From Leptonemataceae bacterium (GTDB taxonomy: Bacteria > Spirochaetota > Leptospiria > Leptospirales > Leptonemataceae): a stretch of 64,000 bases of DNA. The DNA lies in contig OZ245742.1 in NCBI GenBank assembly GCA_965227295.1, positions 2,688,001 to 2,752,000 on the forward strand, in the 5' to 3' direction. Shown here in pieces: positions 5,252 through 39,661 of this stretch (position 1 is its first letter; every line of letters starts with the position of its first letter). Position numbers and translations under genes: made by a program. The notes below the pieces were generated by a model. That model did not search any database, was not told the origin of the DNA, and worked only from the letters and a program-made list of their open reading frames with translations.

Positions 5252-5252
5252 C

Positions 5253-7960: not shown

Positions 7961-8583
7961 ACGATCGAAACTGCATGGATCTCCCCGTTCCCGACAGCCG
8001 TACGATCACTTTGCAGAGCCGCGATTCGGAGAAGCTCGAGTCCGTGTGGGATGAGCTGCGCCGCAGGTTGCTTCTGCACTGCGACGATCGTTTCATCAAA
8101 GCCTACTTCGGCGGCCTGCGGCATGTGCTGCGCGAACTCGTATTCAATGCGCTCAAGGCGAATCTCAAACGCATCTACCTGGAAGAGCTGCGGAGTTCCG
8201 GCGTCCAGGAGGACGGGTTGTCTTCGAATTTTATCCGTCGTTTCCGGCAGCGTTTGCAGGAAGACCCGCACAGCCTCATGCAAAAAGCCGAACAGAGCAG
8301 CTATCGGGTTCAGGTTCGTTTTTTCAGTGAGCAGACGGGATTCCACATCGTCATCGAAAACAATTCGGAAATTTTACCCGTCGAACGCAGTCGCGTGGAG
8401 GACGTCCTGAACGGTCGCGGACTGGAATTTGATCCGGCCGCCGAGCCGGATGCCGAGGGCGGCGGACTGGGATTACACATGATTCGTACGATCCTGGAAA
8501 ACAGCGGCCTGGGCATGTCCAGCCTGAGATTTGACGCCGGCCCTGGACGGACCGCCTTCACGCTTCGGGTGTCCGCGCATTAG
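7948..8583 (+). CDS. HATPase-fold anti-sigma/serine kinase-like protein
   Basis: N-box ELVFNALKAN and G2-box EGGGLGLHMI; directly upstream of a STAS gene. Start could be 7975. Confidence 0.75.
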   Translation: MALLNDRNCMDLPVPDSRTITLQSRDSEKLESVWDELRRRLLLHCDDRFIKAYFGGLRHVLRELVFNALKANLKRIYLEELRSSGVQEDGLSSNFIRRFRQRLQEDPHSLMQKAEQSSYRVQVRFFSEQTGFHIVIENNSEILPVERSRVEDVLNGRGLEFDPAAEPDAEGGGLGLHMIRTILENSGLGMSSLRFDAGPGRTAFTLRVSAH

Positions 8584-8631
8584 ATTGACAGCCTTTGGAG
8601 TTGCAGTAATCAGGAACAGGAGTCTAACGAA

Positions 8632-8958
8632 ATGGAAATGCAGGTTCGTGACATCGGAAAACACCGGGTGGTCGCCATCTCCGGCGAACTCGATCTCTAC
8701 AACGTCGGTAAGTTGAAGAAGCAACTCCTGCCGATTTTGAAAGAGGATCCGACATCGATGGTCGTAGATCTGAAGGAACTGAAGTACATGGACTCCTCGG
8801 GTATCGCGCTCATGGCGCACTGCCGCAAAAAGGTTCTCGAAAAGGGCGGCGAATTTTTCTTAATGAGCGTCGGCGACGATATTCGCAACGTCCTGCGCCT
8901 GGCCGCCCTGGAAGATTTTTTCAATTTTCTGGAAGGCGAGGATCAGCTCCCGGCGTGA
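8632..8958 (+). CDS. STAS-domain anti-sigma factor antagonist
   Basis: GELD and DLKELKYMDSSGI (phosphoacceptor Ser); RBS AGGAG; 108 aa. Confidence 0.93.
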   Translation: MEMQVRDIGKHRVVAISGELDLYNVGKLKKQLLPILKEDPTSMVVDLKELKYMDSSGIALMAHCRKKVLEKGGEFFLMSVGDDIRNVLRLAALEDFFNFLEGEDQLPA

Positions 8959-10001
8959 GCCTCGTTCTCGGCATCGAAAGTTCCTGCGACGAAACCTCCG
9001 TGGCCGTGGTGCGGGACGGACGTCGGAGCCTCGCCAACGTCATTTACTCCCAGATCGATCGCCACGCGCCGTTTCGCGGCGTGGTCCCGGAAATCGCGAG
9101 CCGGGCGCACCTCGAAAAGATCAACGATGTTTATGCCGCCGCCCTGGACCAGGCCGGCGTGTCCCCCGCGGACCTGGACTGCGTCGCGGTAAGCGTTCGT
9201 CCGGGCCTGGTCGGTTCGCTCATGGTTGGTGCGCAACTGGCGAAGTGCCTGGCCCTCGTGCATGATCTTCCTGTAGTCCCCGTGGATCACCTCGAAGCGC
9301 ACATGTATGCGCCGTGCCTGGAGTTCGAGCCGGACGAATCGCTGGAGTATCCCTTTCTCGGATTGTTGCTGAGCGGCGGCAACTCGGCAATCTATCGCGT
9401 CGACGCTCCCGGCCGTCTGGAACTCCTCGGCGATACCCGGGACGATGCCTGCGGCGAAGCCTTCGATAAAATTGCCGCGCTCCTGGAACTGCCCTATCCC
9501 GGCGGACCCTTCATCGAAAAAAAAGCCGGCGAGCACCCGGATCAGGGATGGACCGAAGAGGCCTCGTTATTTCCGCGCCTGCTCCGGAACCTGCCCGGCA
9601 ACGAACTTGCGTTTTCCTTCTCGGGCATCAAGACCGCCGTGGCCCGGGCCGTCCGTGACGGCCACGAAACCGCCCGCATTGCGTATGATTTTCAGCATGT
9701 CGTCTTCGAGCTTGTGGTCCGCAACCTGCGCCGCGCGATGAAAAAAACACGCATTCCGCGCATCGTCGCCTCGGGCGGCGTGCTCGCGAACGACTCGCTG
9801 CGCGGGCACCTGCGCGCTCTGGAACCGGAACTCGTCGAGCAGGGTGGCTGGATTCGCTGGCCCGCGAAGAAGTTCCACTGCACCGATAACGCGGGCATGG
9901 TGGCCGCCCTGGGCTCGGTCCTTTTCGCTGAGGCCCCCGAACGTTACACCGGGGCGCAGCTCGATTTTTCTGTGAGCAGTCGGAGCTCTTTTGCGGTCTA
10001 G
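8955..10001 (+). CDS. tsaD: tRNA N6-adenosine threonylcarbamoyltransferase
   Basis: LGIESSCDET, VVPEIASRAH, HLEAH, DDACGEAFDK, FSFSGIKT and TDNAGM. Confidence 0.96.
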   Translation: MSLVLGIESSCDETSVAVVRDGRRSLANVIYSQIDRHAPFRGVVPEIASRAHLEKINDVYAAALDQAGVSPADLDCVAVSVRPGLVGSLMVGAQLAKCLALVHDLPVVPVDHLEAHMYAPCLEFEPDESLEYPFLGLLLSGGNSAIYRVDAPGRLELLGDTRDDACGEAFDKIAALLELPYPGGPFIEKKAGEHPDQGWTEEASLFPRLLRNLPGNELAFSFSGIKTAVARAVRDGHETARIAYDFQHVVFELVVRNLRRAMKKTRIPRIVASGGVLANDSLRGHLRALEPELVEQGGWIRWPAKKFHCTDNAGMVAALGSVLFAEAPERYTGAQLDFSVSSRSSFAV

Positions 10002-10060
10002 CCGGCGAGAGAAAACATGATTTACAGGCAGGCTTGCCGACGTAAAACAGCTCCCATCTT

Positions 10061-10819
10061 ATGGGCGGAATTAAGGCCTCTATCCCCAACCTCTTCACCC
10101 TGGGGAATCTTACACTTGGTTACTTCGCGATTCTTCTGGCGGCGCAGGCCCACTCAAAAGAAGAGCTGCTCACGGTCGCCGCGCTGTTCATTTTGCTCGC
10201 CATGCTCTGCGACGGTCTGGACGGCTTCGCGGCCCGGCTCCTGAACGCGCGCTCGGAACTCGGCGCGCAACTGGACAGCCTCGCGGACCTCACCGCCTTC
10301 GGCATCGCGCCGGCCGTGGTCTTTTACATGTTCGTCCTGCAAGACTACAATTACGAGGCCTCCGCAGATCTTGATATCCCTACCGGCATGCTCATTTCGG
10401 CCGTCTACCCGGCCTGTGCGGCGTACCGCCTGGCCCGGTTCAACGTCGGCACGCCCGAGGGCGGTTTCGTGGGACTGCCTTCGCCCGTGGCCGGTATTAC
10501 CGTCGCGCTCATGCCCCTGGCCTTCGACGAGCTCATCCCGATTCCGGACATCGCGTTGATCGTGGTCTTCGTACTCGCGGCGTTCTTGATGGTGAGTACG
10601 GTGCGCTACGCGAAGCCCCAGGAAGCCCGCTTCTTCAAACGTTTCTCGCGCATGCGTTTGGGCATCCTGTTAGCCTTTCTCATCGGCGTGCTCGTTTTTG
10701 TTGGCTACACCTACGGCAGCGACTACTCCGCCGCCGGCATCTTTACGATCATCACCATCTACACGGCCACGGGCCTGGTCGCGCTGATCTTCCACGCCAT
10801 CCAGAAATATCGAATGTGA
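10061..10819 (+). CDS. pssA: CDP-diacylglycerol--serine O-phosphatidyltransferase
   Basis: IPNLFTLGN, DGLDG..AR..G..LDSLAD CDP-alcohol motif, RLARFN and FVGLPSP. Confidence 0.92.
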   Translation: MGGIKASIPNLFTLGNLTLGYFAILLAAQAHSKEELLTVAALFILLAMLCDGLDGFAARLLNARSELGAQLDSLADLTAFGIAPAVVFYMFVLQDYNYEASADLDIPTGMLISAVYPACAAYRLARFNVGTPEGGFVGLPSPVAGITVALMPLAFDELIPIPDIALIVVFVLAAFLMVSTVRYAKPQEARFFKRFSRMRLGILLAFLIGVLVFVGYTYGSDYSAAGIFTIITIYTATGLVALIFHAIQKYRM

Positions 10820-10822
10820 GAC

Positions 10823-12208
10823 TCAGTAGAGTTCCCAGCGAAACTGCAGTACGCCGAAACTTTGCGGGCGCCGGTTTACGATACGGGACTCCACGAGAAT
10901 GTAGACGTGCCGGTGCTTCAGGCGCAGCACCAGGCCGCCCGCCGCGTCGGGATCGCCGTAGAATCGGAGGCCGGACTCACGATCTCCGCTGCTGCGTAGA
11001 AAAAAGAATGTATGCTCCGCCGGCGTACCGTAGACGGCGCCGACGCTGAACTCCAGGGACGGCTCTCGACTGCGAAAAAAGAGATCCAGTTCCCCGGCGT
11101 GCACGCCGCTGCGCCGACTTTCGAACACCGTGCGTACTCCGAAGTTCTCATCGCGCCACTCCAGCCCCGTGGCGAGAGCATGGTCTGCGAAATCGGAGCC
11201 GGATCCCGGCGGTGCATTTTCCGAATCCACGAGCGAACCATCCGCTACGTTTCGTACGGCGGCATTGTAGTGTCGGCGCTCGTAATAACGTCCGCGCAGA
11301 AGCCAGTGTATGTCGGCGAACGGCAACCGCGGGGTCCAGGCCAGTTCCATGGTTCGAAAACCGTCCGGGCCGCGGTCGAATCCTGCCGCCCCCGCTTCGA
11401 ATCGACGCATCACATTCACAAAAACCTGCCCGAGTCCGGAGCGGCCCTCTCGTTCCGCGTAAACTTCCCCTGAGGATAAGCTAAGATAATCCCAGGTTTC
11501 CTTGCGTTCCGCTTCGATCAGCAGATCCACGTCGCGCTCCGTGCTCCGGGACGACACCTGCGTCTCTTCGGGAACGAACGTCCCCAATCGACCGTAGCCG
11601 GTCCACGTGCGCGGGGAACGAATCAGGTCGGCGTACGCACTCACCCCCGCCAGCGGAACGCCGTGCACCGTAAGCACGGCGTGGCCGGACGGATGGGCCG
11701 CGAGCAAGAGCCGGCGGTCCCAGGCCAGGAAGGCCCCGGGTTGCGATTCCCCGCTCAGCCAGAACGGCCCGGGCACGGCAAAGTGACGGGGCAGCGGCTG
11801 CAGGAAGATCGAAGCGCGATCACGGCCCGCGGGAATCTGCGGGAAGGCGGAATACGCATCCGGGTCGAGGAGAAAGTTCGTGCGCGGTCCCGGCAGGAAA
11901 CGTCGTCCCATCGTCAGCGCTACGAGGTCGTGGGCAAAAGCCGCGGAAACATGCGATGTTTGATGAAAGCGACGTTCCCGGCCGGGATCTTTTTTGATTG
12001 ATCCCCGGGATTCCAGCAGAAATCGATAGTCCAGATCCGCCGGTAAGCGGCCTTCGGGAAACAGGAACAGGACCTGCTCTTCCGCCGGTCGATCGCCCGC
12101 AAAGCCGCCGCCGGTTTCCAGGCGATGGCTCTGAGACTCTCCGGCGAGGTCCGTGGTCGTAAGCAGGATCAGCACGACGGACGCCGACAGCGACATGAAC
12201 GAAGACAT
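10823..12208 (-). CDS. Exported hypothetical protein, possible outer-membrane beta-barrel
   Basis: Long ORF with N-terminal hydrophobic signal and alternating beta-strand patterns; ends GVLQFRWELY. Start uncertain (12196-12223). Confidence 0.65.
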   Translation of the reverse strand: MSSFMSLSASVVLILLTTTDLAGESQSHRLETGGGFAGDRPAEEQVLFLFPEGRLPADLDYRFLLESRGSIKKDPGRERRFHQTSHVSAAFAHDLVALTMGRRFLPGPRTNFLLDPDAYSAFPQIPAGRDRASIFLQPLPRHFAVPGPFWLSGESQPGAFLAWDRRLLLAAHPSGHAVLTVHGVPLAGVSAYADLIRSPRTWTGYGRLGTFVPEETQVSSRSTERDVDLLIEAERKETWDYLSLSSGEVYAEREGRSGLGQVFVNVMRRFEAGAAGFDRGPDGFRTMELAWTPRLPFADIHWLLRGRYYERRHYNAAVRNVADGSLVDSENAPPGSGSDFADHALATGLEWRDENFGVRTVFESRRSGVHAGELDLFFRSREPSLEFSVGAVYGTPAEHTFFFLRSSGDRESGLRFYGDPDAAGGLVLRLKHRHVYILVESRIVNRRPQSFGVLQFRWELY

Positions 12209-12310
12209 GCCGGAGAACGTCAAAAAAGCGTCGATCGTTGCGCATTTTTCCAGCGATGAGTGAAAAAAGCGCCGCCTCGACGCGTCGCCGGATCGTCATC
12301 TTTGCAGCAC

Positions 12311-12871
12311 ATGTCCGAACTCGACCAAAGATTCGCGCGGTTGTATGACCTCAACCGCGACGATCTCTTTGCGTACATCCGCCGCTCCATTCGGGAAGAG
12401 GACACCTCCCTGGACCTCCTGCAAGACGCCTTCTTGAACTTCTGCCGAATCTACCGCGAGCGCGAACTGCCCGGCGACACCGAGTGCCGCATGTACCTCT
12501 TCAAGATCGCGCGCAACCTCATGATCAATCACGGGAAAAAGGTCTATACCCGTCGGGTGGATCTGGTCGAATCTTACGAAGACGGTTCCAGCGTGCAGTA
12601 CGCGAAGGCCGGCCGATCGGAGCGGACACCGGAAGACCAGATCGTCGAGGCCATGGACACCCGGGAGAAAGAGGCCATTCTGGAGGAACTTCTGGAGGAC
12701 CTGGACGAAGAACTGCGGACGATCCTGCTGCTCCGGCACCAGTCCGACCTGCGTCTGGAGGATATTGCCGCGATCATGGACGTTTCCATATCGACGATCT
12801 CGCGCAATCTACAGAAGGCCGAGCGCGCCTTGATGCAGGCCGGAAAAGAGCGAGGACTCACCGAATTGTGA
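12311..12871 (+). CDS. ECF-family RNA polymerase sigma factor
   Basis: DLLQDAF and YLFKIARN (region 2); LEDIAAIMDVSISTISRNL (region 4). Confidence 0.92.
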   Translation: MSELDQRFARLYDLNRDDLFAYIRRSIREEDTSLDLLQDAFLNFCRIYRERELPGDTECRMYLFKIARNLMINHGKKVYTRRVDLVESYEDGSSVQYAKAGRSERTPEDQIVEAMDTREKEAILEELLEDLDEELRTILLLRHQSDLRLEDIAAIMDVSISTISRNLQKAERALMQAGKERGLTEL

Positions 12872-12965
12872 GGAAATCCGTCGTTTTTTTAGAAAAATCT
12901 GCAAAATCACCCTTGCCGTCTTGTTGCAAAAGGTGAGAGGGTTTGAAATACCCTGAGTCATTCTA

Positions 12966-14066
12966 ATGGAATCGCATCCCGAATTTGAACGCTACCGGCG
13001 CCTGCTTGCGGACTATCCGAAGCGAGACCTTCCGGCCTTCGAAGACGTCATGAAGCGTCAGTCGGCGGTTCTGGTGCACCCGGGCGTTCTGGGTATTGAG
13101 ACACGTTCCGACCGGGCCTGGAAGTCCGGCGGCGGATCCGTCGTGCGCTTCCTCCCGCGCCACTGGCAGGTCGCCGCGGCGACCGTCGTTTTCGCGGTGG
13201 GTGCCCTGGCCCTGGGATACGGCTACGCTGTTCAGAGCGCCGGTCTGCGGGCCGCGGTTCTCTACTCCAGCGGTGACGCCGCCTTCATCATCGGCGGCGC
13301 GGATCAGGCGAGCGACCAGGTCGCGGGCAATTTCCGGTCCGGCAGTCTCGAAGCCGGTAAAATCCTTACGGCAGGTTCCGTTCTGCTCACCGGCAAGGGC
13401 GGCAGCGCCGACATCGTTTTCGGCGACGGTGTAGTCCTGCGCATGAAGGAAAACACCCAGCTTAAACTGGAGCGGCTGGAGCCGCGCCCGGCCGGTGGAC
13501 GCTATTTTTACCTGGCCCTGGAGCGAGGCCGCATGTTTGCTGTTACCGAAAAGTTGAACGAAAACGATGTCTTCATCATTCGCACGGCGGATGCTCTGGT
13601 GGACGTGGATCGTACGGCTTTTCGGATGAGTGCAGGGGACGACGGCACGGTCGTCCACCTCATGCGCGGTCATCTGGATCTTCGCCCCCGCAAAGGCGGG
13701 TCGGCCTCCGTGGCCCTCGGGCCCCGGCATGTCGCGCGAGTGCGCGAAACGGAAGAACGTCCCATCCTGACGCGGGCCCCGGATATGCTGTTCACGGATG
13801 CGCGGGAACTCTATGAGGTTTCCCGGCGCTCCACCCATGTGGCACCGTCGGCTCTGGCGTATCTCGGCGTCGGCGGACGGCCTGTGGTCGGCGGAGCGGT
13901 GTATACGACGGCGGGACCGCGGACCTCGATCGAACTGCGGGACGGTTCTTCCCTCGAAGGGGATATGGTCTCATTAGTAGGACGGCGGGTGTCCTTCCAG
14001 GCGGAAGGCGGCCGCAACTATTCGCTCGATGTGAGCGATATCAAAGGCATTCACTACATGCGGTGA
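12966..14066 (+). CDS. FecR-domain membrane protein (putative anti-sigma factor)
   Basis: Short cytoplasmic N-terminus, one TM and a FecR domain (FGDGVVLRMKENT; IRTADALVDVDRTAF). Follows the ECF gene. Confidence 0.82.
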   Translation: MESHPEFERYRRLLADYPKRDLPAFEDVMKRQSAVLVHPGVLGIETRSDRAWKSGGGSVVRFLPRHWQVAAATVVFAVGALALGYGYAVQSAGLRAAVLYSSGDAAFIIGGADQASDQVAGNFRSGSLEAGKILTAGSVLLTGKGGSADIVFGDGVVLRMKENTQLKLERLEPRPAGGRYFYLALERGRMFAVTEKLNENDVFIIRTADALVDVDRTAFRMSAGDDGTVVHLMRGHLDLRPRKGGSASVALGPRHVARVRETEERPILTRAPDMLFTDARELYEVSRRSTHVAPSALAYLGVGGRPVVGGAVYTTAGPRTSIELRDGSSLEGDMVSLVGRRVSFQAEGGRNYSLDVSDIKGIHYMR

Positions 14067-14144
14067 ATGCAGAAGCAACGACCTGAATAGAATTAGGAAA
14101 TATATATGATTTCTGCAAGTATTCACAGGAAAGGAGAAGGAGCT

Positions 14145-15272
14145 ATGGTGAACGGAAAACGTTTCGCCCGTTTACTGGCAGTCGCGATTCTCGCGGTGGC
14201 GGTAATCGGAGCGGCAAACTGCGGTAAAGACGAGCCCACCGGCGTACAGCGCTCCATGATCATTGTATTCGCTTCCGGCGATGCCATGATTGTTCGGAAC
14301 GGAGAAGAGCTGCCCGCAAAAGTCGGTATGGTGGTGAACGAGAACGACGTTCTCAAAACCACGAACGGCACGGTGGATTTACAAACGAAGAACGGAAGTG
14401 CAGTGCGCATTCGCAACTACACGACCGTTACGATTTCGAAACTCTACGGTGATGGCAGCGCCGATACCCGTCTGAGCATGAAGCACGGCGGCCTTATGGC
14501 TTCCGTACAACGTAAGTCGAGCAAAGAAAACTTCACGGTTACGACCCCGACCGCAATCGCTGGTGTGCGCGGCACGACCTTCACGGTGGAAAGCAATGAA
14601 GGCGAGCCTGCGCGCGTAAAAGTGATCGACGGTAAAGTGGCAATGGCACCGCGAGTGGCTGCGCTTGAAAAGTATTCGGACGAAGAAATCCAGGCGAACG
14701 AAAACCTGAAGAAGCTGAAAGATCTTCAGTCGAAGCAGGAAGTCGTTCTGGAAGAGCGCACCGAAGCGGTCATCGAAGCCGATGTGGCCAGCAAGATGGA
14801 AGACCTGAACAACAAGATCGAGTCCGGCGAAGTCAGCGATGAAGAAGCGGTAGCTATGGCAGCCACGGCAACTAAGACGCTGGAAGCGAAAGATGAGACG
14901 GTTGCGATGGTTCGTTCGGAGGTTACCACCGAGGAATTGGCTGAAAAAGCAACCCTCGTAACGGTCGATGAAGACGTGGCTTCTCGCGCCCGCGAAGGCG
15001 ATGAGAGCGCTCTCGAAGAGATGAAGCGTCAGCGTGACGCGAAGCAAGAACTCGTTCTGAATCAGATCGAAGAAGAAGCTTCTCGCACGGAACTGAAGTC
15101 CGAAGAAGAGATTCGCCAGCACTATAACAAGCTGGAAACCCTGAATCTCCGCAACGGCGATCAGATGACGGGTGCGGTTATCGCACAAACCGGCAACGTT
15201 CTGATCGTGCACACCCCGAAAGGAGTGCGCCGTCTGAAAACGAGCGAAGTCGAGTTCATCACGTATCCGTAA
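14145..15272 (+). CDS. FecR-domain lipoprotein, LipL45-like
   Basis: Strong RBS AAGGAG, lipobox GAAN-C, TPTAIAGVRGTTF FecR motif and C-terminal LRNGDQMTGAVI module. Codon usage resembles a highly expressed gene. Confidence 0.85.
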   Translation: MVNGKRFARLLAVAILAVAVIGAANCGKDEPTGVQRSMIIVFASGDAMIVRNGEELPAKVGMVVNENDVLKTTNGTVDLQTKNGSAVRIRNYTTVTISKLYGDGSADTRLSMKHGGLMASVQRKSSKENFTVTTPTAIAGVRGTTFTVESNEGEPARVKVIDGKVAMAPRVAALEKYSDEEIQANENLKKLKDLQSKQEVVLEERTEAVIEADVASKMEDLNNKIESGEVSDEEAVAMAATATKTLEAKDETVAMVRSEVTTEELAEKATLVTVDEDVASRAREGDESALEEMKRQRDAKQELVLNQIEEEASRTELKSEEEIRQHYNKLETLNLRNGDQMTGAVIAQTGNVLIVHTPKGVRRLKTSEVEFITYP

Positions 15273-15296
15273 TACGGAGCGAGTTGATCGAAACGG

Positions 15297-15328
15297 AAGC
15301 GAGCGGTGTGAGCCGCTCGCTTTTTTTT
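15297..15328 (+). terminator. Rho-independent terminator after the LipL45-like gene
   Basis: AAGCGAGCGG-tgtgag-CCGCTCGC followed by T8. Confidence 0.9.
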
Positions 15329-15385
15329 GCCCGGCCTTTTTTGTTGCATTCCGCCCCGCGTGTACCCTACATTAAATAGTACCCT

Positions 15386-15607
15386 ATGGGAGAGCAGGAT
15401 TACCAGGCCATGGTCGACCTGAACCGGCTGATGCGGCCGGCGATGGTCTGTGTATGCCGCCGCGTGCCCGAGGAACGCATCCGCGACGCGGTGGAAAACC
15501 GCGGAGCACGGAGCTTCGACGAGGTGCAGGCCATCACGAACTGCTCCACGGGCTGCGGAACCTGCGAGTCCGAGGTTCGCGCCCTCATCAAAAAGTACCG
15601 GAATTAG
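15386..15607 (+). CDS. BFD-like (2Fe-2S)-binding protein
   Basis: VCVC...CSTGCGTC pattern; 73 aa. Confidence 0.88.
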   Translation: MGEQDYQAMVDLNRLMRPAMVCVCRRVPEERIRDAVENRGARSFDEVQAITNCSTGCGTCESEVRALIKKYRN

Positions 15608-15644
15608 TTGCCAGTGCGGGTTTGGATCGCATCCTGGCACCGTT

Positions 15645-16304
15645 ATGGCCGAATATCTGAGCTGGTCCCGATTGTTCGAATCGGGCGGGCCGACCCTCCT
15701 TATCTTACTGATCTGTTCGATCGTTTCCTTTGTCGTCATCATCGAACGTTTCGTCTACTTTAACGCAAAGCGCGTTTCCGTTGTCGATTTTCTCGCGAAG
15801 TTCCTGGAACGACTCGGCAATGCCGGCGTACTGCATCCCCGGGACGAGGAAGACTATCGCAAAACGCCCGTGGGTTATGTGCTCGTCGAATGTCACGAGT
15901 CGGTGCGGGAACGTGCCGACGGCGAGGACTTTGATCGTCGCTTCGATGAAACGAAGAGCCGCGCCATCGCCGAAAAGCTGCCGGACATGGATCGTTATCT
16001 GGGCATTGTGGCGACCCTGGGGACGGTGAGCCCCTACATTGGTCTGTTGGGCACGGTCTTCGGCATCATTCGGGCCTTCATGAGCCTGGGCGGTGATCCT
16101 TCCGCGGAATCGGCGGCCAGCATGAATGAACTGAACGCCGGCATTGCCGAGGCGCTCATTGCAACGGCGGCCGGGCTGTTCGTTGCCATCCCGGCTACGA
16201 TTGCGTACAACTTTTTTCGGCGCCGGGCGAACGCTCTGGTCCTCGACATGGAAATCGCGGCGAGCCGGTTGAAGAGCGCGCTGCTGGCTAATCGCAAGGG
16301 CTGA
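15645..16304 (+). CDS. MotA/TolQ/ExbB proton channel family protein
   Basis: SPYIGLLGTVFGII and GIAEALIATAAGLFVAIPA. Confidence 0.93.
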   Translation: MAEYLSWSRLFESGGPTLLILLICSIVSFVVIIERFVYFNAKRVSVVDFLAKFLERLGNAGVLHPRDEEDYRKTPVGYVLVECHESVRERADGEDFDRRFDETKSRAIAEKLPDMDRYLGIVATLGTVSPYIGLLGTVFGIIRAFMSLGGDPSAESAASMNELNAGIAEALIATAAGLFVAIPATIAYNFFRRRANALVLDMEIAASRLKSALLANRKG

Positions 16305-16317
16305 ACTTACGCATCGT

Positions 16318-16731
16318 ATGATCGACTATCGTAAATACCAGGAAGGCGAGGGCCTCTTCAGCGGCATCAACATTGTGCCGTTTACGGACGTGGTGCTCGT
16401 GCTGCTGATCATCTTTATGATCGCGGCGCCGGGTCTTTTGAGCGCGGGCCTGAACATCTCGTTGCCGGGGGCTTCGTCGGCGGACCCCGACGTTCCGGCC
16501 ACCGTGACCGTGGGCCTCGATCGTGACGGGCGCATTTTTCTGGATGGGCGCGGGCTCAAGGACGCGGCGGATCTTACCGCGGAGATCAAGGCCCTGGTTG
16601 AGAAGCGAGCGGACCTGGGCGTCGTGGTGAACGCGGACTCGGCGGCCCGTCACGGTCGTGTCGTAGAAGTGATGGACGGTTTACGAAATTCCGGCGTGAA
16701 TAAGATTTATGTCGGGACCGTTCAGAAGTGA
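16318..16731 (+). CDS. ExbD/TolR family protein
   Basis: INIVPFTDVVLVLLIIFMI and NAD....HG.VV.VMD. Confidence 0.93.
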   Translation: MIDYRKYQEGEGLFSGINIVPFTDVVLVLLIIFMIAAPGLLSAGLNISLPGASSADPDVPATVTVGLDRDGRIFLDGRGLKDAADLTAEIKALVEKRADLGVVVNADSAARHGRVVEVMDGLRNSGVNKIYVGTVQK

Positions 16732-18097
16732 CGTTGAAGAGTTCCTGCGCCGACTGCGCTCCGACTTCGGCTTTGCCATCAGCACTGCCGTCTTCCTGAT
16801 TCCTCCCGCCCTGTTGCTGTGCGAGGCGCTGCTGATCGCGCGTCGGCCCCTGTTTTTTGTTACGTTCTTTCTCGCCGGAACCGGCGCGGAGTTTCTCCTC
16901 GATCTCTTGCTGCGTCGTTTCCTGTACCGCGGTTGGATCAACCGTCGGCGTTTTTTCTTTTATCAGTATCTGGTGCGGACGATCATCGGTCTGCCGTTTA
17001 CAATTTACCTTTCCCTGGGCGCCGCGACGCCGCTGCCCGGTCTCTTTCGTTTTCTGCCGGTCCTGGTGCTGGTGGATCGTTCACGTCTGGTCAGTCAGTT
17101 CGCGGGCCAGGTAACGTTCTTCGCGGCGGGGGTCTTTGCGTACGCGTTGCTGGTGGACCTCGGCCTGCCGGATGAGCGCGGCTGGATCGTACTCATCGCG
17201 TACTCCGGATTGGCGGCGCTACTCGGCGTGGAGTTGCAGCGTCGCGGAAGTGCGCGCCTGGCGCGGGCCCGACTGCGGCGCGAACGCGGGCTCTGGCATT
17301 TGCGTTATGATCATATCGCGGCGCGGGAAGAACGGTTGCTGCGTTCAATCTTACCGGAAGCGGATGTGCGTCGACGCCAGGCGGATCGTGAGGTTGCGAT
17401 CGAAGCCGGGGAGTTTCTGGTACTCGCGATGTCTTTCCCGGGCCTGCATGCAGCGGGGCAAGACGCGCGGGACGCCGGCGACGAGGCCGTCCTGGAGTTG
17501 CAGCGGTCCTGGGATTTACAATACGATCACCTGCGTCGGCGCCTGGAGGATCAGGGTTTCGTCGTGAACCTGGACGGCATGATGCTGCAGGCCGCGCGTC
17601 GCCTGGATCGTGATAGCGGGGAGCTGGAAGAACTGCTGTTTCCCCTCGTGTTCGAAGCACGAGAGTTGCTGCGTCTGGTTGCCCGGGACCGGCGTGCCCG
17701 GGAAGGGCGCGGTCGTCGCGGCTGGCGGGCCGAGGCTGCCATCGCCGCCGGCTCCTGCGTGCGCGGGCGCAGGAGTTCCTACCATCCGGCTCCGGCTTTC
17801 CGCGGGCCGGTCATGGACGAACTGGAGCGGCGGCTGCTTTTCGTTCCCGCACTGAATCAGACCGCGTTCCTGGCGGATGAGCGCAACGTGGAGCGGGCCG
17901 GAGAACGTCTCCTGGTGCATCCGGACCTGGCGGCGTGGGTGCGGCCCTACTTCGCGGCCGGGGACGGGGTCTTCGATCAGAAGTGGTTTATTCCCGGACT
18001 CATCCATCCGAATTACTCGATAGGGGCCGAAGGCCTCGAAGCCGTGCCTGATATCCTGGAACGGATTCGGTTTGAGCGCAAGCAGCGCTCTGTTTAG
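16709..18097 (+). CDS. Multi-TM protein with a degenerate class III nucleotidyl-cyclase-like domain
   Basis: About 6 TM segments, then the signalling-helix motif ERLLRSILPE and cyclase-like spacing. Catalytic Asp motifs are not recognisable. Confidence 0.55.
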   Translation: MSGPFRSDVEEFLRRLRSDFGFAISTAVFLIPPALLLCEALLIARRPLFFVTFFLAGTGAEFLLDLLLRRFLYRGWINRRRFFFYQYLVRTIIGLPFTIYLSLGAATPLPGLFRFLPVLVLVDRSRLVSQFAGQVTFFAAGVFAYALLVDLGLPDERGWIVLIAYSGLAALLGVELQRRGSARLARARLRRERGLWHLRYDHIAAREERLLRSILPEADVRRRQADREVAIEAGEFLVLAMSFPGLHAAGQDARDAGDEAVLELQRSWDLQYDHLRRRLEDQGFVVNLDGMMLQAARRLDRDSGELEELLFPLVFEARELLRLVARDRRAREGRGRRGWRAEAAIAAGSCVRGRRSSYHPAPAFRGPVMDELERRLLFVPALNQTAFLADERNVERAGERLLVHPDLAAWVRPYFAAGDGVFDQKWFIPGLIHPNYSIGAEGLEAVPDILERIRFERKQRSV

Positions 18098-28690: not shown

Positions 28691-29822
28691 ATGGTGGTCT
28701 GCATGCGGGGACAACACGGGCGCAAAGCCGTGCCGGTTTACGCTGAGAGTCGCGGACACCCTCGACAGACGATCCCACTGATTGGTGCGATTTTAAGTTT
28801 GCCTGCTGCGTTCATCGGCTTCTTCCGTTTTACGCGCGGCGATCCACCGAAGCCCGTCGAAGCAGAGGCGCCGCCAACTTCGACGTCCCCGATTCTTACG
28901 CGCGGTTCTTCGTGGGCCGCGATTGTCTCGCGGGCGATCGGCGCGGGAGTGAAGATTCCGAGGGACTGTCGCAGGGAGATATCATCCGCTACTGCTATCA
29001 GAACTGGCCGGGCTCGGAGCGCGTGCTGCTCGTCTTCGAAAACGCGGAGAGCGCGGGCGTAGGTCTCAGTGATATTAAGTTACCGCCGGAGAGTCTTAGT
29101 CGGTTTCGGGTGTTGATCCTGTCGCAGCGCCACTACGGCGAGGCCGGGTGGCTGGAGACGATCGTGCTGGATGTGCTGGAGCCGGACGATGCGGCGAAGT
29201 TGCTGCTGCACCTGGTCGGCCGCGGTACGCACGACGCGGCGCGGGAGTTGTGCGCGGAGCTGGGCTATCTGCCGCTGGCGGTGGAGCTTACGGGGCGTTA
29301 CATTCGCGATAGCGAGCGCGATCTTGCGGCCGTGCGTCGACAGCTTCATCTGGATGCGGCGGCGTTGCAGAAGCGTTCGGACATGACGGCCACGCACGCG
29401 AGTCTGCGCGCGGCGGTCGGGTGTTGACGGCGGAGGCGCGTGAGGTTCCGCAGGCGATGACGCTGGTGATTGCGGATCGGGTGGCGCCGGTGTTGCCGCA
29501 TATTGAGATGTTGCAGGGTCGTCAGGACGAAGCGGAGCCGCTGTTTACTGAGTCGCTGTCGTTGCGCCGCCGTGTGCTGGGCGATGATCATCCGGCTGTG
29601 GCGCAGAGCCTGAATAATCTGGCGGCATTGTATGATGATCAGGATCGTTACGCCGAAGCGGAGCCGCTCTACGTACAGGCTGTGTCTATCGCCGAAAAGG
29701 CCCTCGGTCCCGACCATCCCGACACGCAACTATTCGCAACAACCTCGCGATCTTCCGCGCGAAGGAGCAGCAACGTTCCGGCGATACCTGAATTGCCTGC
29801 GAACCACAACTCTTCGCGTTAG
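28691..29822 (+). pseudogene. Decayed NB-ARC (STAND) NTPase + TPR gene
   Basis: Fragments in shifting frames: FFVGRD, RYCYQNW..RVLLVFENA, LGYLPLAVEL (GxP motif) and kinesin-light-chain-type TPRs (LGDDHPAVAQSLNNLAALY). Walker A is missing. Confidence 0.8.
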
Positions 29823-29827
29823 CGATT

Positions 29828-29933
29828 GGAAGGGTCGCGGCGAAGCCGCGAGTCCGGAGCGCGCAGCGCGGAGGACCGCAGCCGAAGGCGGAGCCCTGGA
29901 AAGCGCGACCCGAGCGCAGCGAGGGGAACGCCC
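29828..29933. repeat. Palindromic multi-hairpin intergenic element with GNA triloops
   Basis: Outer pair GGGTCGCG/CGCGACCC; inner hairpins TCGCGGC-GAA-GCCGCGA, CGC-GCA-GCG and GCC-GAA-GGC. Single copy in the window. Confidence 0.6.
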
Positions 29934-30001
29934 AAAAAGATTCCTCTACATGAAGCCTTTATTCTTCTTGTTCTACAAAGTCACGCCAGGATCGTTACTC
30001 T

Positions 30002-31269: not shown

Positions 31270-32070
31270 CTAAGGCACCGAGAACTCCCTCGATTGGATT
31301 AATGGCGTTCTGATGATCGAATCGACAACTTGCTTTAATTGGCTGTTCGCCGTCTTCGATGATATGAAATTTGCAAGATCGCGGTAGCGCAGCAGAGTCA
31401 GTTCCATTTCCGTAAAAGATTGTAGTTTCCAATTCGAATCATCGTAATCGATTTCGTGTAACGTTGGATCATTATAATCGTGTTTCTTCAATAGCCTCGC
31501 TCGCAGGTGGTTTCGAGCCTGGGTAAATCCGTCTTGAAAACAAAAATCGACAGGTTCCTTGCCCAGAATGGAGAAGATCTTTTCGTCATAATCCATGCTC
31601 ATCCCGCCCACCAGAGGATTCCGAGGTTCTCCGCTCGTCTCGGCTGAAAAAAAGAACTCAAGGGTGTAATGGGAGACATCAGGAGGTGGTTCTTCACCGA
31701 GAGCCAGCAGGATATAAAGCTCTCCCGGATATGAGCCCATGTGGCGATAGAAGCGAATCCTGTCCGGTTCGCTGGAGTACATGCGTAATGCGAGCTGGTC
31801 CGCATTCCAGGTGCCCGGACTGAATTCTGTGAGGACTGTGAGGACTCTTAATTCACTAACCCCGTGGACCGTCGCTATTGTACTACGGAGCTTTGCCAGA
31901 GTTGCGGCGGCATCGCTGTAATGCCCAGGTGTTGGAACATAGAGCTGGAAGTCTGAACTGACACCGGCCTGCGGCGGAGGGGCATAACTGCTTCCTCTCG
32001 GGGTATTGGCAACCCGCGTCCATCCGAGCTGCGGCAGGATCCTGTGAACTTTCTCAAACGGGAGGTTCAT
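31270..32070 (-). CDS. Hypothetical protein (lower GC), partner of the DUF4365-like gene
   Basis: 266 aa; overlaps the upstream gene by 17 nt; N-terminus L...GW....LYVP...Y.D. Confidence 0.7.
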   Translation of the reverse strand: MNLPFEKVHRILPQLGWTRVANTPRGSSYAPPPQAGVSSDFQLYVPTPGHYSDAAATLAKLRSTIATVHGVSELRVLTVLTEFSPGTWNADQLALRMYSSEPDRIRFYRHMGSYPGELYILLALGEEPPPDVSHYTLEFFFSAETSGEPRNPLVGGMSMDYDEKIFSILGKEPVDFCFQDGFTQARNHLRARLLKKHDYNDPTLHEIDYDDSNWKLQSFTEMELTLLRYRDLANFISSKTANSQLKQVVDSIIRTPLIQSREFSVP

Positions 32071-32614
32071 GCGAACTCCAAAGCTCCGCAAAGTATGTCT
32101 GCAATCTCTCCATTGTCAACAAATCCTCGCTATGTAGTTTGACACGAATGGTATGCTTGTTACTGGATAAATCGGCTCCGCGGTCGAGATTGAACATGTA
32201 CGCCGAGTACCGAGTTTCCAGATGATCCTCAGTTACCAGGACGACCTGGTCTCGGTCCGGGGGGTAAATAAAGACGATCGTTATAAGTGGTTTAATTCGT
32301 TGGGTCCGAGTGATTTCATTCTTCCGAACGAGTAGATCATTGTAGTTCCTGACTTTTAGAGAATAGAGAAAGCCACCAGCGACTCGCCGAACATAGCGTT
32401 CTGAAGTTGCCTTCAACTGAATGTCGATGGCCTTGCCTGTGCTCACATAACGCGTCGCCCCGTTCGGGTCAGGGTAGCTGTCCACTTCATCAATCGTCAG
32501 ATCCACTCCAAAATCATTCTCGGGCTTTGAGGCTACGTAGCCCGCTCTCGCCGCGATGAGGCTCACAAAGCTACGTGAGACATTTTCGATAGTTGTGCTG
32601 AATGGAACAGGCAT
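32054..32614 (-). CDS. DUF4365-like PD-(D/E)xK nuclease-fold protein
   Basis: DFGVDLTI ... IDIQLKAT ... YSLKVRNYNDL pattern; lower GC than the flanks. Confidence 0.78.
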   Translation of the reverse strand: MPVPFSTTIENVSRSFVSLIAARAGYVASKPENDFGVDLTIDEVDSYPDPNGATRYVSTGKAIDIQLKATSERYVRRVAGGFLYSLKVRNYNDLLVRKNEITRTQRIKPLITIVFIYPPDRDQVVLVTEDHLETRYSAYMFNLDRGADLSSNKHTIRVKLHSEDLLTMERLQTYFAELWSSHEPPV

Positions 32615-35869: not shown

Positions 35870-37504
35870 TTACACCACTTTACTCCACGAACCTTCCCCG
35901 GCCTGGTTGACCGCGCGCACGCGATAACGAAAGTTTCCCGTATCCGCGTCGGAATCCAGCAGTGACGTCGTTTCCACGCAGGCGTGCAGCATTTCCCAGT
36001 GCATGTCGTCGGTGCGGCGGCGTTCCACCTGGTAGATGGCCGCGCCGTCCGTGACGGACCAGTCCACGCGCATGCCGTTATCGTCGACCCGGGTGTGGAC
36101 GTCGTGCACTCGCCCCGGTGGTTCCGCGCGCACCAGGATTTCTTCGAGGGCCTGCGGGCCCCACGAGTCCTGACGTTGCCGGGCCAGCTCGCGAACCTCG
36201 TGGGCGAACTCGGGGTAGTCGGTGAGGATCTCATGAAACGTATCGTAATCCAGGACGTAGAGATCGCAGTAGTCCAGGGCGCGGACACTTGCGGTTCGCG
36301 GGCGGTCGAGCAACAGGGCAATCTCACCGAAGAAACTGCCCTCGGTCAGGGTCGCATAGACCGTGCGACCGTCCTCGCCTAAAATCTCCACGCTGCCGCG
36401 GCTGATGAAGAACATGGTCGTGCCGTGCTCGCCGTGCCGGAAGATGAAGTCGCCCGGTGTATAGACCGCCGGCGAAAGTTCGAGCACGAGCCGGCGAATG
36501 AGATCCTCGTTTGCGCCTTTGAAGATGGGCACCTTTTCGATGATGTCCTGATTTAGGAACAGCGCCACCTTGAGTTGCAACGACGGCGGCAGTTCGTGGA
36601 TGACGTCGGCCTCGTCGTAACCGCGACGGGACTCCCATAGATATTCGTAGTAACTGCGAATGTTTGCCTGGATCTCCTCGGGGATCTTGCGGAGCTTCAT
36701 GAAGGTGTTGATCTTCTCCATCTTCTCCATGTATTGGGCGCGCGCGATGTTTACGTTCGCGAGCAGGCTCGCAATGTTACCGATGACGTAACCGTACATG
36801 CCGGCGCCCACGATCTGTAAGACCACCGTGTAAATCGTTTGAAGGTTCGTACTGGGCGTGATGTCGCCGTAGCCGATGGTGGTGATCGTGGTGATGGCCC
36901 AGTAAAACGAGCGCAGATAGTAGCGGTACGGATCGGCCGTGTCCTCGGGCGGCATGGCTTCCGTACCGAGGATCATCCAGCCGCAGGCCATCCAGTGCGA
37001 GAGCAGGAGGACCCAGAACGCCAGGAAGATCATCCGCAGCACGCTGACGTTCACCATGGAGGCCCGGCTGATCTCCTGCATGAGCTGGACGATGCGCGCC
37101 AGACGAAAGAGGCGCAGCAGGCGGACGATGCGCGCCGTATCCGTGAGCGCGCCGACGGTGTTCTGGAGGATCAACTGAAACGGGAAGGCCGCCAGGAAGT
37201 CGAAGACGAACCAGCTCCGGAGATAACGCCCGGCAATGTCGCGGCGTCGGGTGATCAACTGCCCCTGGGCATAGACGGCGGTCTGGAACGTCAACAGGAT
37301 GTCCACGGTGAACGAGGTGCTGAGCAAGGTGTCGACGTAGGGCAGGAGGCCGGTGGCCTCGTAGTCCAGGACCAGGCGCAGCGGGACCTCCACGGCCGCG
37401 TAGACGGTCAGCAGCAGGATGTAGGCGTCCCAGAGTTCCTTGATGAGACTGTTCGGGCGGAGCAGGGGCCAACCGCCTTCCCGGACCAGAATGCGACTGA
37501 ACAT
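35870..37504 (-). CDS. Cyclic nucleotide-gated K+ channel with C-terminal fibronectin type III-like domain
   Basis: S4 RIVRLLRLFRLAR, pore TTIGYGD, C-linker, cNMP motif FGEIALL...RTASVRA and FN3-like tail YRVRAVNQAGEGSWS. Confidence 0.93.
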   Translation of the reverse strand: MFSRILVREGGWPLLRPNSLIKELWDAYILLLTVYAAVEVPLRLVLDYEATGLLPYVDTLLSTSFTVDILLTFQTAVYAQGQLITRRRDIAGRYLRSWFVFDFLAAFPFQLILQNTVGALTDTARIVRLLRLFRLARIVQLMQEISRASMVNVSVLRMIFLAFWVLLLSHWMACGWMILGTEAMPPEDTADPYRYYLRSFYWAITTITTIGYGDITPSTNLQTIYTVVLQIVGAGMYGYVIGNIASLLANVNIARAQYMEKMEKINTFMKLRKIPEEIQANIRSYYEYLWESRRGYDEADVIHELPPSLQLKVALFLNQDIIEKVPIFKGANEDLIRRLVLELSPAVYTPGDFIFRHGEHGTTMFFISRGSVEILGEDGRTVYATLTEGSFFGEIALLLDRPRTASVRALDYCDLYVLDYDTFHEILTDYPEFAHEVRELARQRQDSWGPQALEEILVRAEPPGRVHDVHTRVDDNGMRVDWSVTDGAAIYQVERRRTDDMHWEMLHACVETTSLLDSDADTGNFRYRVRAVNQAGEGSWSKVV

Positions 37505-37615
37505 GATGATATGATTGCGGTTAATGGAGTGGATCTGCGTAAAGCGAAAATCCGCGGCGGCGAAACTGCGCGAACTTGCTTGACTCAAACGCGGCGCGTT
37601 CTTCCATACAGAACG

Positions 37616-38269
37616 ATGGCGAAACGCAAAGAGAAGCGCAGGAGTCGGGCGGTCTCGCCCCGGGCGCTCTACGAACTGGGCAATGAACGCAATAAGGTGC
37701 ACATCCGCTGGCTGCTGGTCGTGCTCATCACGGGCTATCTTTCCTACTTACTGAGAGCCGACAAGGGCCAGGAAATCGGCACGAACCATCTGTTCTCCTG
37801 GGAGTACATCATCGCCATTACGGCGTTCATTGTCATCGCGAACATCCTCTTTGCGACCTACCTGCGCCTGGTCGCCGCGGACCGCCTGCCCATGCTGCGC
37901 ATCCTCAAGTATCTGAGCATGATCGTGGACTTCATCGCCGTTTCCCTGGTGCTCATCCCCACCGGCGGCGACCGCAGCATTTTCTTCGTCGTGTACTTCA
38001 TCGTCATTGTTTCGAACAGTCTGCGCTACGGCATGCGCCTGGCCGTGGCCGGCCTCTTTGCCTTCAACTTTTCCTACGTCGGCGTCCTCATTTACCAGTA
38101 CTGGCCGGACCTGGTCGTGCCGAACTTTCAGGGCGAGATCCTGAAAGTCGGCGCCTTCTGGGTTGTCGGCCTCTACTGCGGCTACATCGCCCGGCGTTTT
38201 GAAGTGTTGCAGGGCGAGGTGGAGAAGTATCAAGAACTTGTCCGTAAACTTATGGAACCTAAGAGTTAG
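37616..38269 (+). CDS. Stand-alone multi-TM sensor-like membrane protein
   Basis: 5-6 TM segments with a D......TGG..S.F......I....LRYG pattern typical of sensor-kinase/GGDEF input domains. It ends after a short coiled helix. Confidence 0.75.
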   Translation: MAKRKEKRRSRAVSPRALYELGNERNKVHIRWLLVVLITGYLSYLLRADKGQEIGTNHLFSWEYIIAITAFIVIANILFATYLRLVAADRLPMLRILKYLSMIVDFIAVSLVLIPTGGDRSIFFVVYFIVIVSNSLRYGMRLAVAGLFAFNFSYVGVLIYQYWPDLVVPNFQGEILKVGAFWVVGLYCGYIARRFEVLQGEVEKYQELVRKLMEPKS

Positions 38270-38273
38270 CCGA

Positions 38274-39235
38274 AGTTCGAGAGTTGTGGTTCGTTGCGTT
38301 AGTCGTGAGACACACAAGGTAAGTTGCGCAATGGTCAAGGGGTTGATTTGGCTACAGCTGAGCGGGAGTTGTGGAGTTTCGTATTGCAAACATCGTCCGC
38401 ATCGACCCGGACGTTGGTTTGTGACTCAGCTATCGTAACGTATCTTACGGCGAAGACGCCGTTCCGGTGCGCACCCCACATTTCCCCGGGACAACCTCCG
38501 TGGTCGCCTGGAACCAGCCGTACCCATAAAAGTCTTAATGTACATTGGCCGCTACTTACACCACAATTCGGGGCGTGTTCGAACGAATAAAACGTTTCCG
38601 GTAGTTCAAGAGCTGCGGTTCGTTGCGTTGGCCGTGAAAAACAGAAAGTAAGCCGGCAAATGCTGAAGGGCCTTTTTTGGCTACGGCTCTTCGGAGTTGT
38701 GGATTTTCGTTTTGTTAAGCACGCTGGAGTCGACCCGGGCGCTGGTTGTGCGGATCCGCTATCGTAAACTTGCGGTGAAGACGCCGTTCCGGTGCGCGCC
38801 CCACATTTCCCCGGCATAACCTCCGCACGTGAGCTGGAACCCGCCGTACCCATAAAAGTCTTAATGTACATTGGCCGCTACTTACACCACAATTCGGGGC
38901 GTGCTCGAACGAATAAAACGTTTCCGGTAGTTCAAGAGCTGCGATTCGTTGCGTTGGCCGTGAAAAACAGAAAGAAAGTTGCGCAACGGTTAAGGGCCTT
39001 TTTTGGCTACGGCTCTTCGGAGTTGTGGATTTTCGTTTTGTTAAGGATGCTGTGCTCGACCCGGACGCTGGTTGTGCGGATCCGCTATCGTAAACTTGCG
39101 GTGAAGACGCCGTTCCGGTGCGCGCCCCACATTTCCCCGGCATAACCTCCGCACGTGAGCTGGAACCAGCCGTACCCATAAAAGTCTTAATCCAAACTGG
39201 CCGCCACTTACACCACGATCCGGGGCGTGTGCGAA
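38274..39235 (+). repeat. Tandem array of ~3 diverged ~326-bp non-coding units (candidate structured RNA or mini mobile element)
   Basis: Units start at ~38274, 38603 and 38929. The landmark CGTACCCATAAAAGTCTTAAT recurs at 38519, 38845 and 39171 (period 326, not a multiple of 3). Confidence 0.95.
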
Positions 39236-39661
39236 TTACTTACGAAGATATCGAATGAGCCGCAGGGCCGGTGTCGGGGAAAACACGCCGCCGCCGATCA
39301 GAAGGTTCATGCTGTCCGCGGCCGGATCGCGCAGTTCGGGTTTCCAGACGTAGCCGCAGGAACCGGCGCGGAGACACTGGAGGATCGTCTCGGTGCGCGC
39401 CGATCGTGAGATGATCGCGGGGATCGGCGACAGGCGTCGCCGCCGCAGGCGACCGAGGAAGGCCGTCGCCGGCATGCGCGGCAGGAGGGCCTCAAGCCAG
39501 AGGATGTCGCAATCGCCGGGCTCGCTCAAGAAATGCTCGGCGGATTCGTACTCCAGGATGCCGGCCGTGCGCGGGTCCTGGTTCAGGCGCTCCCGTAGAC
39601 TGTAACGGAAGCAGCGATCCGGATCGATGATGGCGGCGATGTAGGTGCGGAATCCGGACAT
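39236..39661 (-). CDS. Degenerate NarL-type receiver-domain protein lacking the HTH (possibly truncated)
   Basis: ETILQCLRAGSCGYVWK and GGGVFSPTPALRLI..RK-stop. The phosphoacceptor position is Glu (WLE). Confidence 0.65.
   Translation of the reverse strand: MSGFRTYIAAIIDPDRCFRYSLRERLNQDPRTAGILEYESAEHFLSEPGDCDILWLEALLPRMPATAFLGRLRRRRLSPIPAIISRSARTETILQCLRAGSCGYVWKPELRDPAADSMNLLIGGGVFSPTPALRLIRYLRK

Follow-up and report, generated by a model that had tools for sequence, protein, structure and literature searches.

A genome-wide family of 329-bp intergenic mosaic repeats in a Leptonemataceae bacterium

The tandem array at positions 38274-39235 of the window, the 64,000-nucleotide stretch of a Leptonemataceae genome that was analysed here, is real, and it is one locus of a genome-wide family of 329-bp repeats rather than a locus-specific system. 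It had been put forward in an initial annotation, made from the sequence alone, as the best candidate for a novel system in the window. This cannot be upheld in that form, because the array belongs to a set of 116 loci, is free of cargo and does not stand alone. The explanation that we favour, with a probability of roughly 60%, is that the family represents a lineage-specific, satellite-like selfish intergenic repeat comparable to a long BIME or a tandem REPIN cluster.

Results and Discussion

The array and its flanking genes

TRF assigned to the array a period of 326, 2.9 copies, 87% matches and a score of 1379, while the remaining three TRF rows of the window had scores of only 50-68. The start-to-start spacing of the copies is 329 and then 326, which bears out the approximately 2.95 direct copies originally described. 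When mapped on the family consensus, copy 1 occupies 38274-38602 (half A 38274-38438, half B 38439-38602), copy 2 occupies 38603-38928 and copy 3 occupies 38929-39235, all on the plus strand, with copy 3 ending at about unit position 311, where the convergent gene has its stop codon. The three copies are 85-86% identical to this consensus, and the optional hairpin modules described below are absent from all of them. A half-A core that is conserved in the genus, and that matches solo copies in two sister species, is found on the plus strand at 38343-38418 in copy 1 and at 38672-38746 and 38998-39072 in the other two copies. Within the core of copy 1 lies an 11-bp sequence (38363-38373, plus strand) that flanks an integrase island in another unit; copies 2 and 3 have a variant form of it.

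The array is bounded by convergent stop codons at 38269 and 39236 and fills the gap between them. Its GC content of 0.52-0.55, compared with 0.55-0.68 for the flanking genes, agrees with the view that it is more AT-rich than its surroundings. The upstream gene (37616-38269, plus strand), whose stop codon adjoins the array, encodes a 217-aa membrane protein that belongs to no Pfam or NCBIfam family, and the convergent gene (39236-39661, minus strand) encodes a 141-aa protein with a weak Response_reg match (E 1e-4, below the Pfam cut-off). As had been noticed before, there is thus no enzyme nearby. The orthologues of the upstream gene in the two sister species (69% identity) have no repeat downstream, and their downstream neighbours are different. 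Elsewhere in the window, a gene resembling those for cyclic-nucleotide-gated potassium channels is located at 35870-37507 (minus strand), divergent from the upstream gene and with weak NCBIfam matches. Two ORFs of 273 and 186 aa at 31270-32614 (minus strand) look foreign by eye, and the shorter one gives, again by eye, the impression of a nuclease fold.

The read evidence comes from short-read contigs of two out of three runs, both belonging to one study that is perhaps the source of the assembly, and the whole array is spanned by no single contig. At single-copy depth (170-186 in run X1), these contigs matched both flanks and the stretch 38601-38695 in copy 2, the latter without any difference. 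The array bins reached depths of 4,500-17,400 in X1, approximately 25-100 times the single-copy level. This is what is expected of one member of a many-copy family, and it is in line with the earlier judgement that the array is no assembly stutter; the depth speaks for many copies. Contig joints that go back or skip were considered as traces of unit circles, but most of them have other letters between their two sides, probably from other arrays, and they provide no evidence for circles.

A genome-wide repeat family in intergenic gaps

The comparison of copy 2 with the single-contig genome of 5.94 Mb (G000) returned many matches with about 70-92% identity. A profile search of the genome yielded 308 pieces in 118 clusters, its first round giving 85 full units, and the removal of two antisense self-hits left 116 loci that cover 74,271 bp, or 1.25% of the genome. 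In this set, 58 loci are at least 600 bp long, 31 represent about one unit and 27 are fragments; the longest locus measures 2,373 bp. Altogether, 210 A halves and 229 B halves were counted. The arrays consist of 1-6 head-to-tail units per gap, the full units being 322-331 bp in length, and the units abut directly and carry no cargo.

The placement of the arrays is strongly biased towards convergent gene ends. On the basis of rough ad hoc gene calls, by which the gene upstream of the present array was mis-called, arrays occupy 60 of 827 convergent gaps, 48 of 3,225 co-directional gaps and 6 of 827 divergent gaps (p-value of 2e-23), and they fill a median of 92% of the gap. No recurrent family was detected among 222 array-flanking proteins, and the flanking genes look largely like housekeeping genes, as judged from 147 soluble proteins named by eye. 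The idea that neighbouring arrays enclose cargo cassettes was rejected: arrays within 6 kb of each other are co-oriented in a ratio of 15:4, but three of these cases are split arrays, and the clustering of arrays along the genome is not significant (p-value of 0.09). A strict sense polarity was rejected as well, the signal being weak. At only 43 of the 116 loci does the unit plus strand coincide with the leading strand (p-value of 0.007, with origin and terminus placed by GC skew).

In a BLAST comparison with 151 genomes of the order, the ~75-bp core of half A had matches in 3, and the 109 genomes from the other family of that order gave no match to the unit. A scan of metagenomes gave 14 single matches, none of which had a unit around it, and scans of viral sequences gave no match. 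Our literature search, with supplements outside its scope, encountered no description of the 329-bp repeat, and the accessible portions of PMC2267715 and PMC2864571 hold nothing that bears on it.

Anatomy of the repeat unit

In the backbone of the unit, conserved boxes alternate with variable windows whose length is fixed. Hairpin modules (38-65 bp), which are optional, are present at unit positions of about 94, 127, 159, 188 and 232, and there is a further hairpin module near unit position 200. The idea that these modules are free elements was rejected, since they are almost confined to arrays: outside them, only three matches in a second repeat family and one at the edge of an array were seen. 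An origin of the modules from tRNA ends was likewise rejected, the scores being only marginal, with two ARAGORN calls in or beside repeat copies. The modules show paired changes, which arise either from selection or from palindrome correction.

Several findings make it probable that the unit is an inverted doublet that has diverged, with half A and half B facing each other. The reversed profile of half B matched 32 of 85 A halves as compared to 6 of 425 shuffles, and the same-strand control gave 0 of 85. In copy 1 of the present array, half B (38439-38590), when read on the minus strand, would accordingly be a diverged half-A homologue. In one old copy, A aligns with reverse B over 110 nucleotides; for most copies the homology is weak, and only 7 of the 85 A halves reach 8 bits against reverse B. 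The alignment of the A and B consensus sequences is borderline (p-values of 0.03-0.06), and the homology of A and B is therefore likely, but not certain. Both halves start with a similar 8-mer, and at some junctions between units these 8-mers make up an inverted repeat.

An inverted doublet of this kind could be the element itself, namely a MITE or REPIN that is moved in trans by a lost or unrecognised transposase, with the tandem arrays being secondary. The layout, the similar 8-mers with the inverted repeats at junctions, and the existence of older copies with a single doublet are consistent with this view, and tandem REPIN clusters have been described (available parts of PMC3116915). However, the array ends are ragged and only broadly clustered at two symmetry axes, near positions 0 and ~165, and no sharp terminal inverted repeats were found there. 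Target-site duplications were also absent, the mean shared flank being 5.1 versus 4.9 in permutations (89 arrays with approximate boundaries). When the 196 ends of 98 multi-copy segments were compared with the unit, none scored above the shuffle null. Moreover, the doublet forms no hairpin in folding tests, and distant copies are never near-identical, the best pair reaching 92%. PF01797, the family of Y1/RAYT transposases, was not found in this genome or in those of the two sister species (each ~93% complete), whereas the control was positive in 6 of 14 genomes. We therefore regard movement in trans as very improbable.

The backbone itself folds no better than shuffled sequences: copy 2 has z-scores of +2.2 and +1.7, and 20 units have z-scores of about 0. 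The consensus fold is weak (-0.72 kcal/mol), no conserved fold with covariation was detected, and Rfam gave no match for the unit. Although the optional hairpins, with their fixed sites, are reminiscent of expansion segments, a structured-RNA fold is largely refuted by these predictions. A guide array might be suspected because the variable windows have a fixed length, but the same windows recur among arrays and are not unique spacers. In agreement with the initial annotation, a CRISPR array was rejected because the units align end to end and do not combine a short repeat with unique spacers, and an array of attC-bearing integron cassettes was rejected because the units abut without cargo and none of the four tyrosine recombinases of the genome is an IntI. 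With the read depth arguing for many copies and against an assembly artefact, it is barely credible that the array is a structured non-coding RNA, a guide array, a cassette system or an artefact. The unit is no coding relic either: a reading frame is not kept, as had been recognised from the outset and as is apparent from unit lengths of 322-331 bp, and a period-3 signal is missing from the column conservation of 85 units. Of the two possible identities of the unit that had been named, a decayed gene is contradicted by the missing frame, and a known IS end finds no support among the ends of resident multi-copy elements.

Conservation of the core in two sister species

Matches to the pattern of the ~75-bp half-A core number 176 in G000 and 14 and 8 in the two sister species (G001 and G002), while 39 other genomes of the family have 0-3 matches each. 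Among the exact core matches across 185,579 species, 10 of 11 were in the two sisters, and the eleventh was a single actinobacterial match. The sister copies are mostly solo and located at gene ends. In 19 of them, the boxes hardly vary while the windows are only ~42% alike, and none of the copies are near-identical. Of these 19 copies, 18 also have an upstream box that was not part of the search pattern (chance level of 13%). The conservation of boxes and windows is correlated across species, with a Spearman coefficient of 0.61 over 56 positions and of 0.44 over the 33 positions outside the pattern. A uniform-rate null for box conservation was set aside, because it is too strict under shared ancestry.

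Each sister has a tail-to-tail inverted core pair behind a fliY/fliN-family gene, and in G000 the gap between this gene and a fliO-like gene is occupied by an array of the current 329-bp unit. At two other sites that are common to both sisters, G000 has a second, hairpin-rich repeat instead. Of 26 best hits to the sister flanks, 4 were beside an array (background of 4.6%); two of these represent fliY and two are doubtful orthologues, which leaves the fliY site as the one solid case of a syntenic position. We infer from the arrangement behind fliY that an inverted pair of this type was the ancestor of the 329-bp unit, the old site having been overwritten.

The cross-species conservation of the boxes suggests that they are read by a protein, and the near-invariant boxes of the sister copies, with their dissimilar windows and the additional upstream box, are easier to reconcile with selection acting on every copy than with neutral decay. 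Such a protein may belong to the host. A nucleoid organiser, a topoisomerase, or a terminator or 3'-UTR RNA factor would then bind the boxes, and the arrays would be kept because they are active at converging gene ends. We consider a host-functional site of this type rather unlikely. It is supported by the presence of the same boxes in three species that are ~69% alike in protein while the windows drift, by the inverted doublet behind fliY in all three species, by the 3'-end bias of the arrays, and by a terminator-like hairpin with a T run in half A (7 sites versus 3.5 expected). In addition, binding of IHF, gyrase and Pol I is described for BIMEs (PMC3184786, in the parts available). On the other hand, the sisters manage with 8-14 copies, the two sister-common sites hold another repeat family in G000, and there is no conserved fold. 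The unit has no helical AA/TT period, and module lengths of 38-65 bp do not correspond to whole turns. Conversion within one genome may also conserve boxes neutrally.

Mosaicism and the evolution of arrays

Pairs of units from the same array have a median identity of 87% (38 pairs), compared to 79% for pairs from different arrays (3532 pairs), and 30 of 53 units have their nearest neighbour in their own array. Linkage among units genome-wide decays rapidly, with an r2 of 0.17 for sites up to 10 bp apart and of ~0.018 for those more than 60 bp apart; it reaches the background by about 60-70 bp and is lowest over the conserved boxes, without a single hot spot. For 126 of 219 differences between close neighbours, both alleles are present in other arrays, and register jumps in units run through shared modules. 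The ratio of transitions to transversions in close pairs is 140:79, compared to 1364:912 in control repeats. Unusual mutagenesis was rejected, as the flat substitution spectrum disappeared in close pairs. Taken together, these patterns indicate that the arrays change by local duplication and short-tract homologous exchange, and that the recombinational mosaicism is real and visible at the scale of the genome.

The same processes appear to be sufficient for the array in the window. The shared motifs quoted for pairs of its copies are indeed present. All 48 sites that unite copies 2 and 3 against copy 1 are at unit positions up to 235, whereas 10 of the 14 sites that unite copies 1 and 2 are at positions from 268 onwards. 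Of the nine sites that unite copies 1 and 3 against copy 2, eight match the family consensus. This split by position and the eight consensus sites point to one tandem duplication that started in mid-unit, followed by a few short conversion patches. The most recent duplication would cover 38508-39159 (plus strand), its segments being 38508-38833 and 38834-39159, and 38508-38807 is 94% alike to 38834-39133. The patchwork had been taken as an argument against a simple recent duplication, which was an over-reading of the few sites concerned. Likewise, the copies had been read as a head-to-tail stack from an undescribed element family, its members being either independently acquired or recombining. 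The recombining, undescribed family is borne out, but independent acquisition is not needed at this locus.

Recombinases and mobile elements

Searches of the genome revealed no resolvase. The Y2 transposases of IS91/ISCR elements had no match in the three genomes, where the control likewise matched nowhere. One IS110 element, 10 RTs and a small GIY-YIG gene are all at least 6 kb from any array. The proposed look for copies that are interspersed with cargo or adjoin an RT gave nothing, whereas the recombinase to be looked for was encountered in part: none flanks the array in the window, but a tyrosine-integrase island lies inside another unit. The genome encodes four tyrosine recombinases, two of which are XerC/D-like and two of which are island integrases that score far below the integron cut-off.

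The island of 12.7 kb (G000 ~2989220-3001920) is inserted at unit positions 90-100. It has an 11-bp direct repeat at both ends, 12-bp inverted arms and an intact-looking integrase, and besides a repetitive protein of 1843 aa it carries two HTH genes together with three small paralogues. The 11-bp site has 126 copies within arrays and 8 elsewhere. A second element of 17.8 kb (G000 ~4208444-4226252), possibly an undescribed small prophage, encodes a related integrase (31-32%); its insertion site is in the second repeat family, and it has a 7-bp direct repeat and inverted arms. Its genes are almost without family matches. Finally, an element at G000 1034577-1036050, which we take to be IS481-like, splits another unit with a 6-bp duplication, its other copies using unrelated targets. 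The repeats therefore serve as landing sites for mobile elements.

These islands raise the question of whether the repeat is a recombinase platform like the neisserial dRS3/NIME, where the tyrosine integrase of the island would recombine the core box and thereby build and seed the arrays. Apart from the dRS3 precedent (PMC1797815, as far as available) and the two integrases with their respective repeat families, this idea gains from the position of the 12.7-kb island, which is at a distance of two genes from the ancestral fliY site and within the region where arrays are densest (6 loci per 60 kb versus a mean of 1.15), and from the sisters having only two XerC/D-like matches and no arrays seen at their repeat loci. 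We nevertheless judge it improbable. The insertion is one event among 126 site copies, the repeat provides only a half-site, and array ends are not clustered at the 11-bp site. Linkage dips at every conserved box (0.53-0.69 at positions 81-101 versus 0.70 at 181-191). For the island integrase, no relatives with genomic context were found, the distant relatives lacking such context, and three genomes are too few for a co-occurrence to carry weight.

A broader and more speculative reading, which we hold to be quite unlikely, is that the boxed core is a recombination site which is recognised by a protein and belongs to an undescribed system. Paired in inverted orientation and amplified into a genome-wide platform, it would spread without a transposase, swap hairpin modules between loci and act as the landing pad of tyrosine-integrase islands. 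If true, such islands would make up a small clade in which every island has a repeat family of its own as counterpart.

A second intergenic repeat family

The second repeat is hairpin-rich and ~130 bp long, with about 242 matches that amount to 38 kb, and a copy is located in the window at ~29790-29950; this copy has no Flavo-1 match in Rfam. It never occurs within 200 bp of 329-bp arrays. The two families have one hairpin module in common, as well as a leader in five copies. As to a possible kinship, there was no profile signal, and a pairwise signal was dependent on parameters. An RT element, presumably group II intron-like, has inserted immediately after a hairpin of the second family (G000 2020350-2022484). 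The genome also has two dense tRNA clusters in an inverted arrangement, with about 40 calls (G000 ~4547000-4560000).

A model for the origin and spread of the repeat

According to the selfish-repeat model that we favour, one inverted core pair would have diverged into halves A and B and become the 329-bp unit. Arrays would then lengthen through unequal recombination or slippage, irrespective of phase, and homologous recombination with short conversion tracts would swap patches and hairpin modules between loci. Looped-out unit circles might perhaps re-enter other copies, and exchange may overwrite old sites such as the fliY-fliO gap. Copies would persist where they are harmless, behind stop codons. 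The boxes that are kept across species while the windows drift imply a protein reading them, which may be either a mobiliser or a host factor. A point against this model is the seeding of empty gaps, for which no candidate enzyme was found in searches of the genome. Further points are the near-invariant boxes of the sister copies with their dissimilar windows, the weak homology of A and B in most copies, the paired changes in hairpin modules and the strand bias of the loci.

The genus presents a before-and-after situation, with few solo copies and the ancestral inverted pair in two species and ~200 tandem units in the third. It also provides, within a single chromosome, ~200 dispersed copies that are close to linkage equilibrium, along with two related integrases that each landed in a different repeat family. 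The present value of this situation is limited, as the organism is apparently known only from assembled metagenomes.

Comparison with known repeat systems

Pneumococcal BOX and SPRITE repeats are shorter than the 329-bp unit and have a predicted RNA structure. The 329-bp repeat shares with them a modular build and a position near gene ends (PMC3184786, available parts). With 58 of the 116 loci having at least 600 bp, it can be placed among prokaryotic non-coding satellite families, a class that is descriptive only. The non-coding satellites of Leptospira interrogans, a member of the same order, are also scattered tandem families of unexplained mechanism, but have units of 37-69 bp instead of a modular unit of 329 bp (PMC6749651, as far as available). 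The Discussion of that paper states that the spread of such families through bacterial genomes is unexplained.

Like the neisserial NIME with their dRS3/RS elements, the repeat forms mosaic intergenic arrays that are reshaped by recombination and into which the recombinase of a mobile element integrates. The described NIME differ in having a 20-bp inverted repeat and more than 100 spacer families, as opposed to one fixed unit with five module sites. In addition, the neighbours of the present arrays look like ordinary housekeeping genes, and the integrase is a tyrosine recombinase (all NIME comparisons from the parts of PMC1797815 that were at hand).

The repeat also resembles REPIN/BIME sequences, which are equally extragenic and lineage-specific, form inverted doublets and tandem higher-order clusters, prefer convergent gene ends and occur in hundreds of copies (PMC3116915 and PMC3184786, both in part). 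Indeed, inverted doublets of the REPIN type are present here, as judged from the profile test, and clear doublets were seen in both sisters. In comparison with what these parts describe, the repeat has a period of 329 bp, its halves are ~150 bp long and non-palindromic, the doublet does not fold, and no RAYT was found in the three genomes. A short palindromic unit of 20-40 bp as in REP is missing, hairpins being restricted to optional modules. As it has no palindrome, no hairpin and no RAYT, the repeat is not a member of REP/REPIN, and it lies outside the MITE, CRISPR and integron families as well. Judged by its sequence, it appears to be a new, long form of bacterial intergenic mosaic repeats with a traceable origin.
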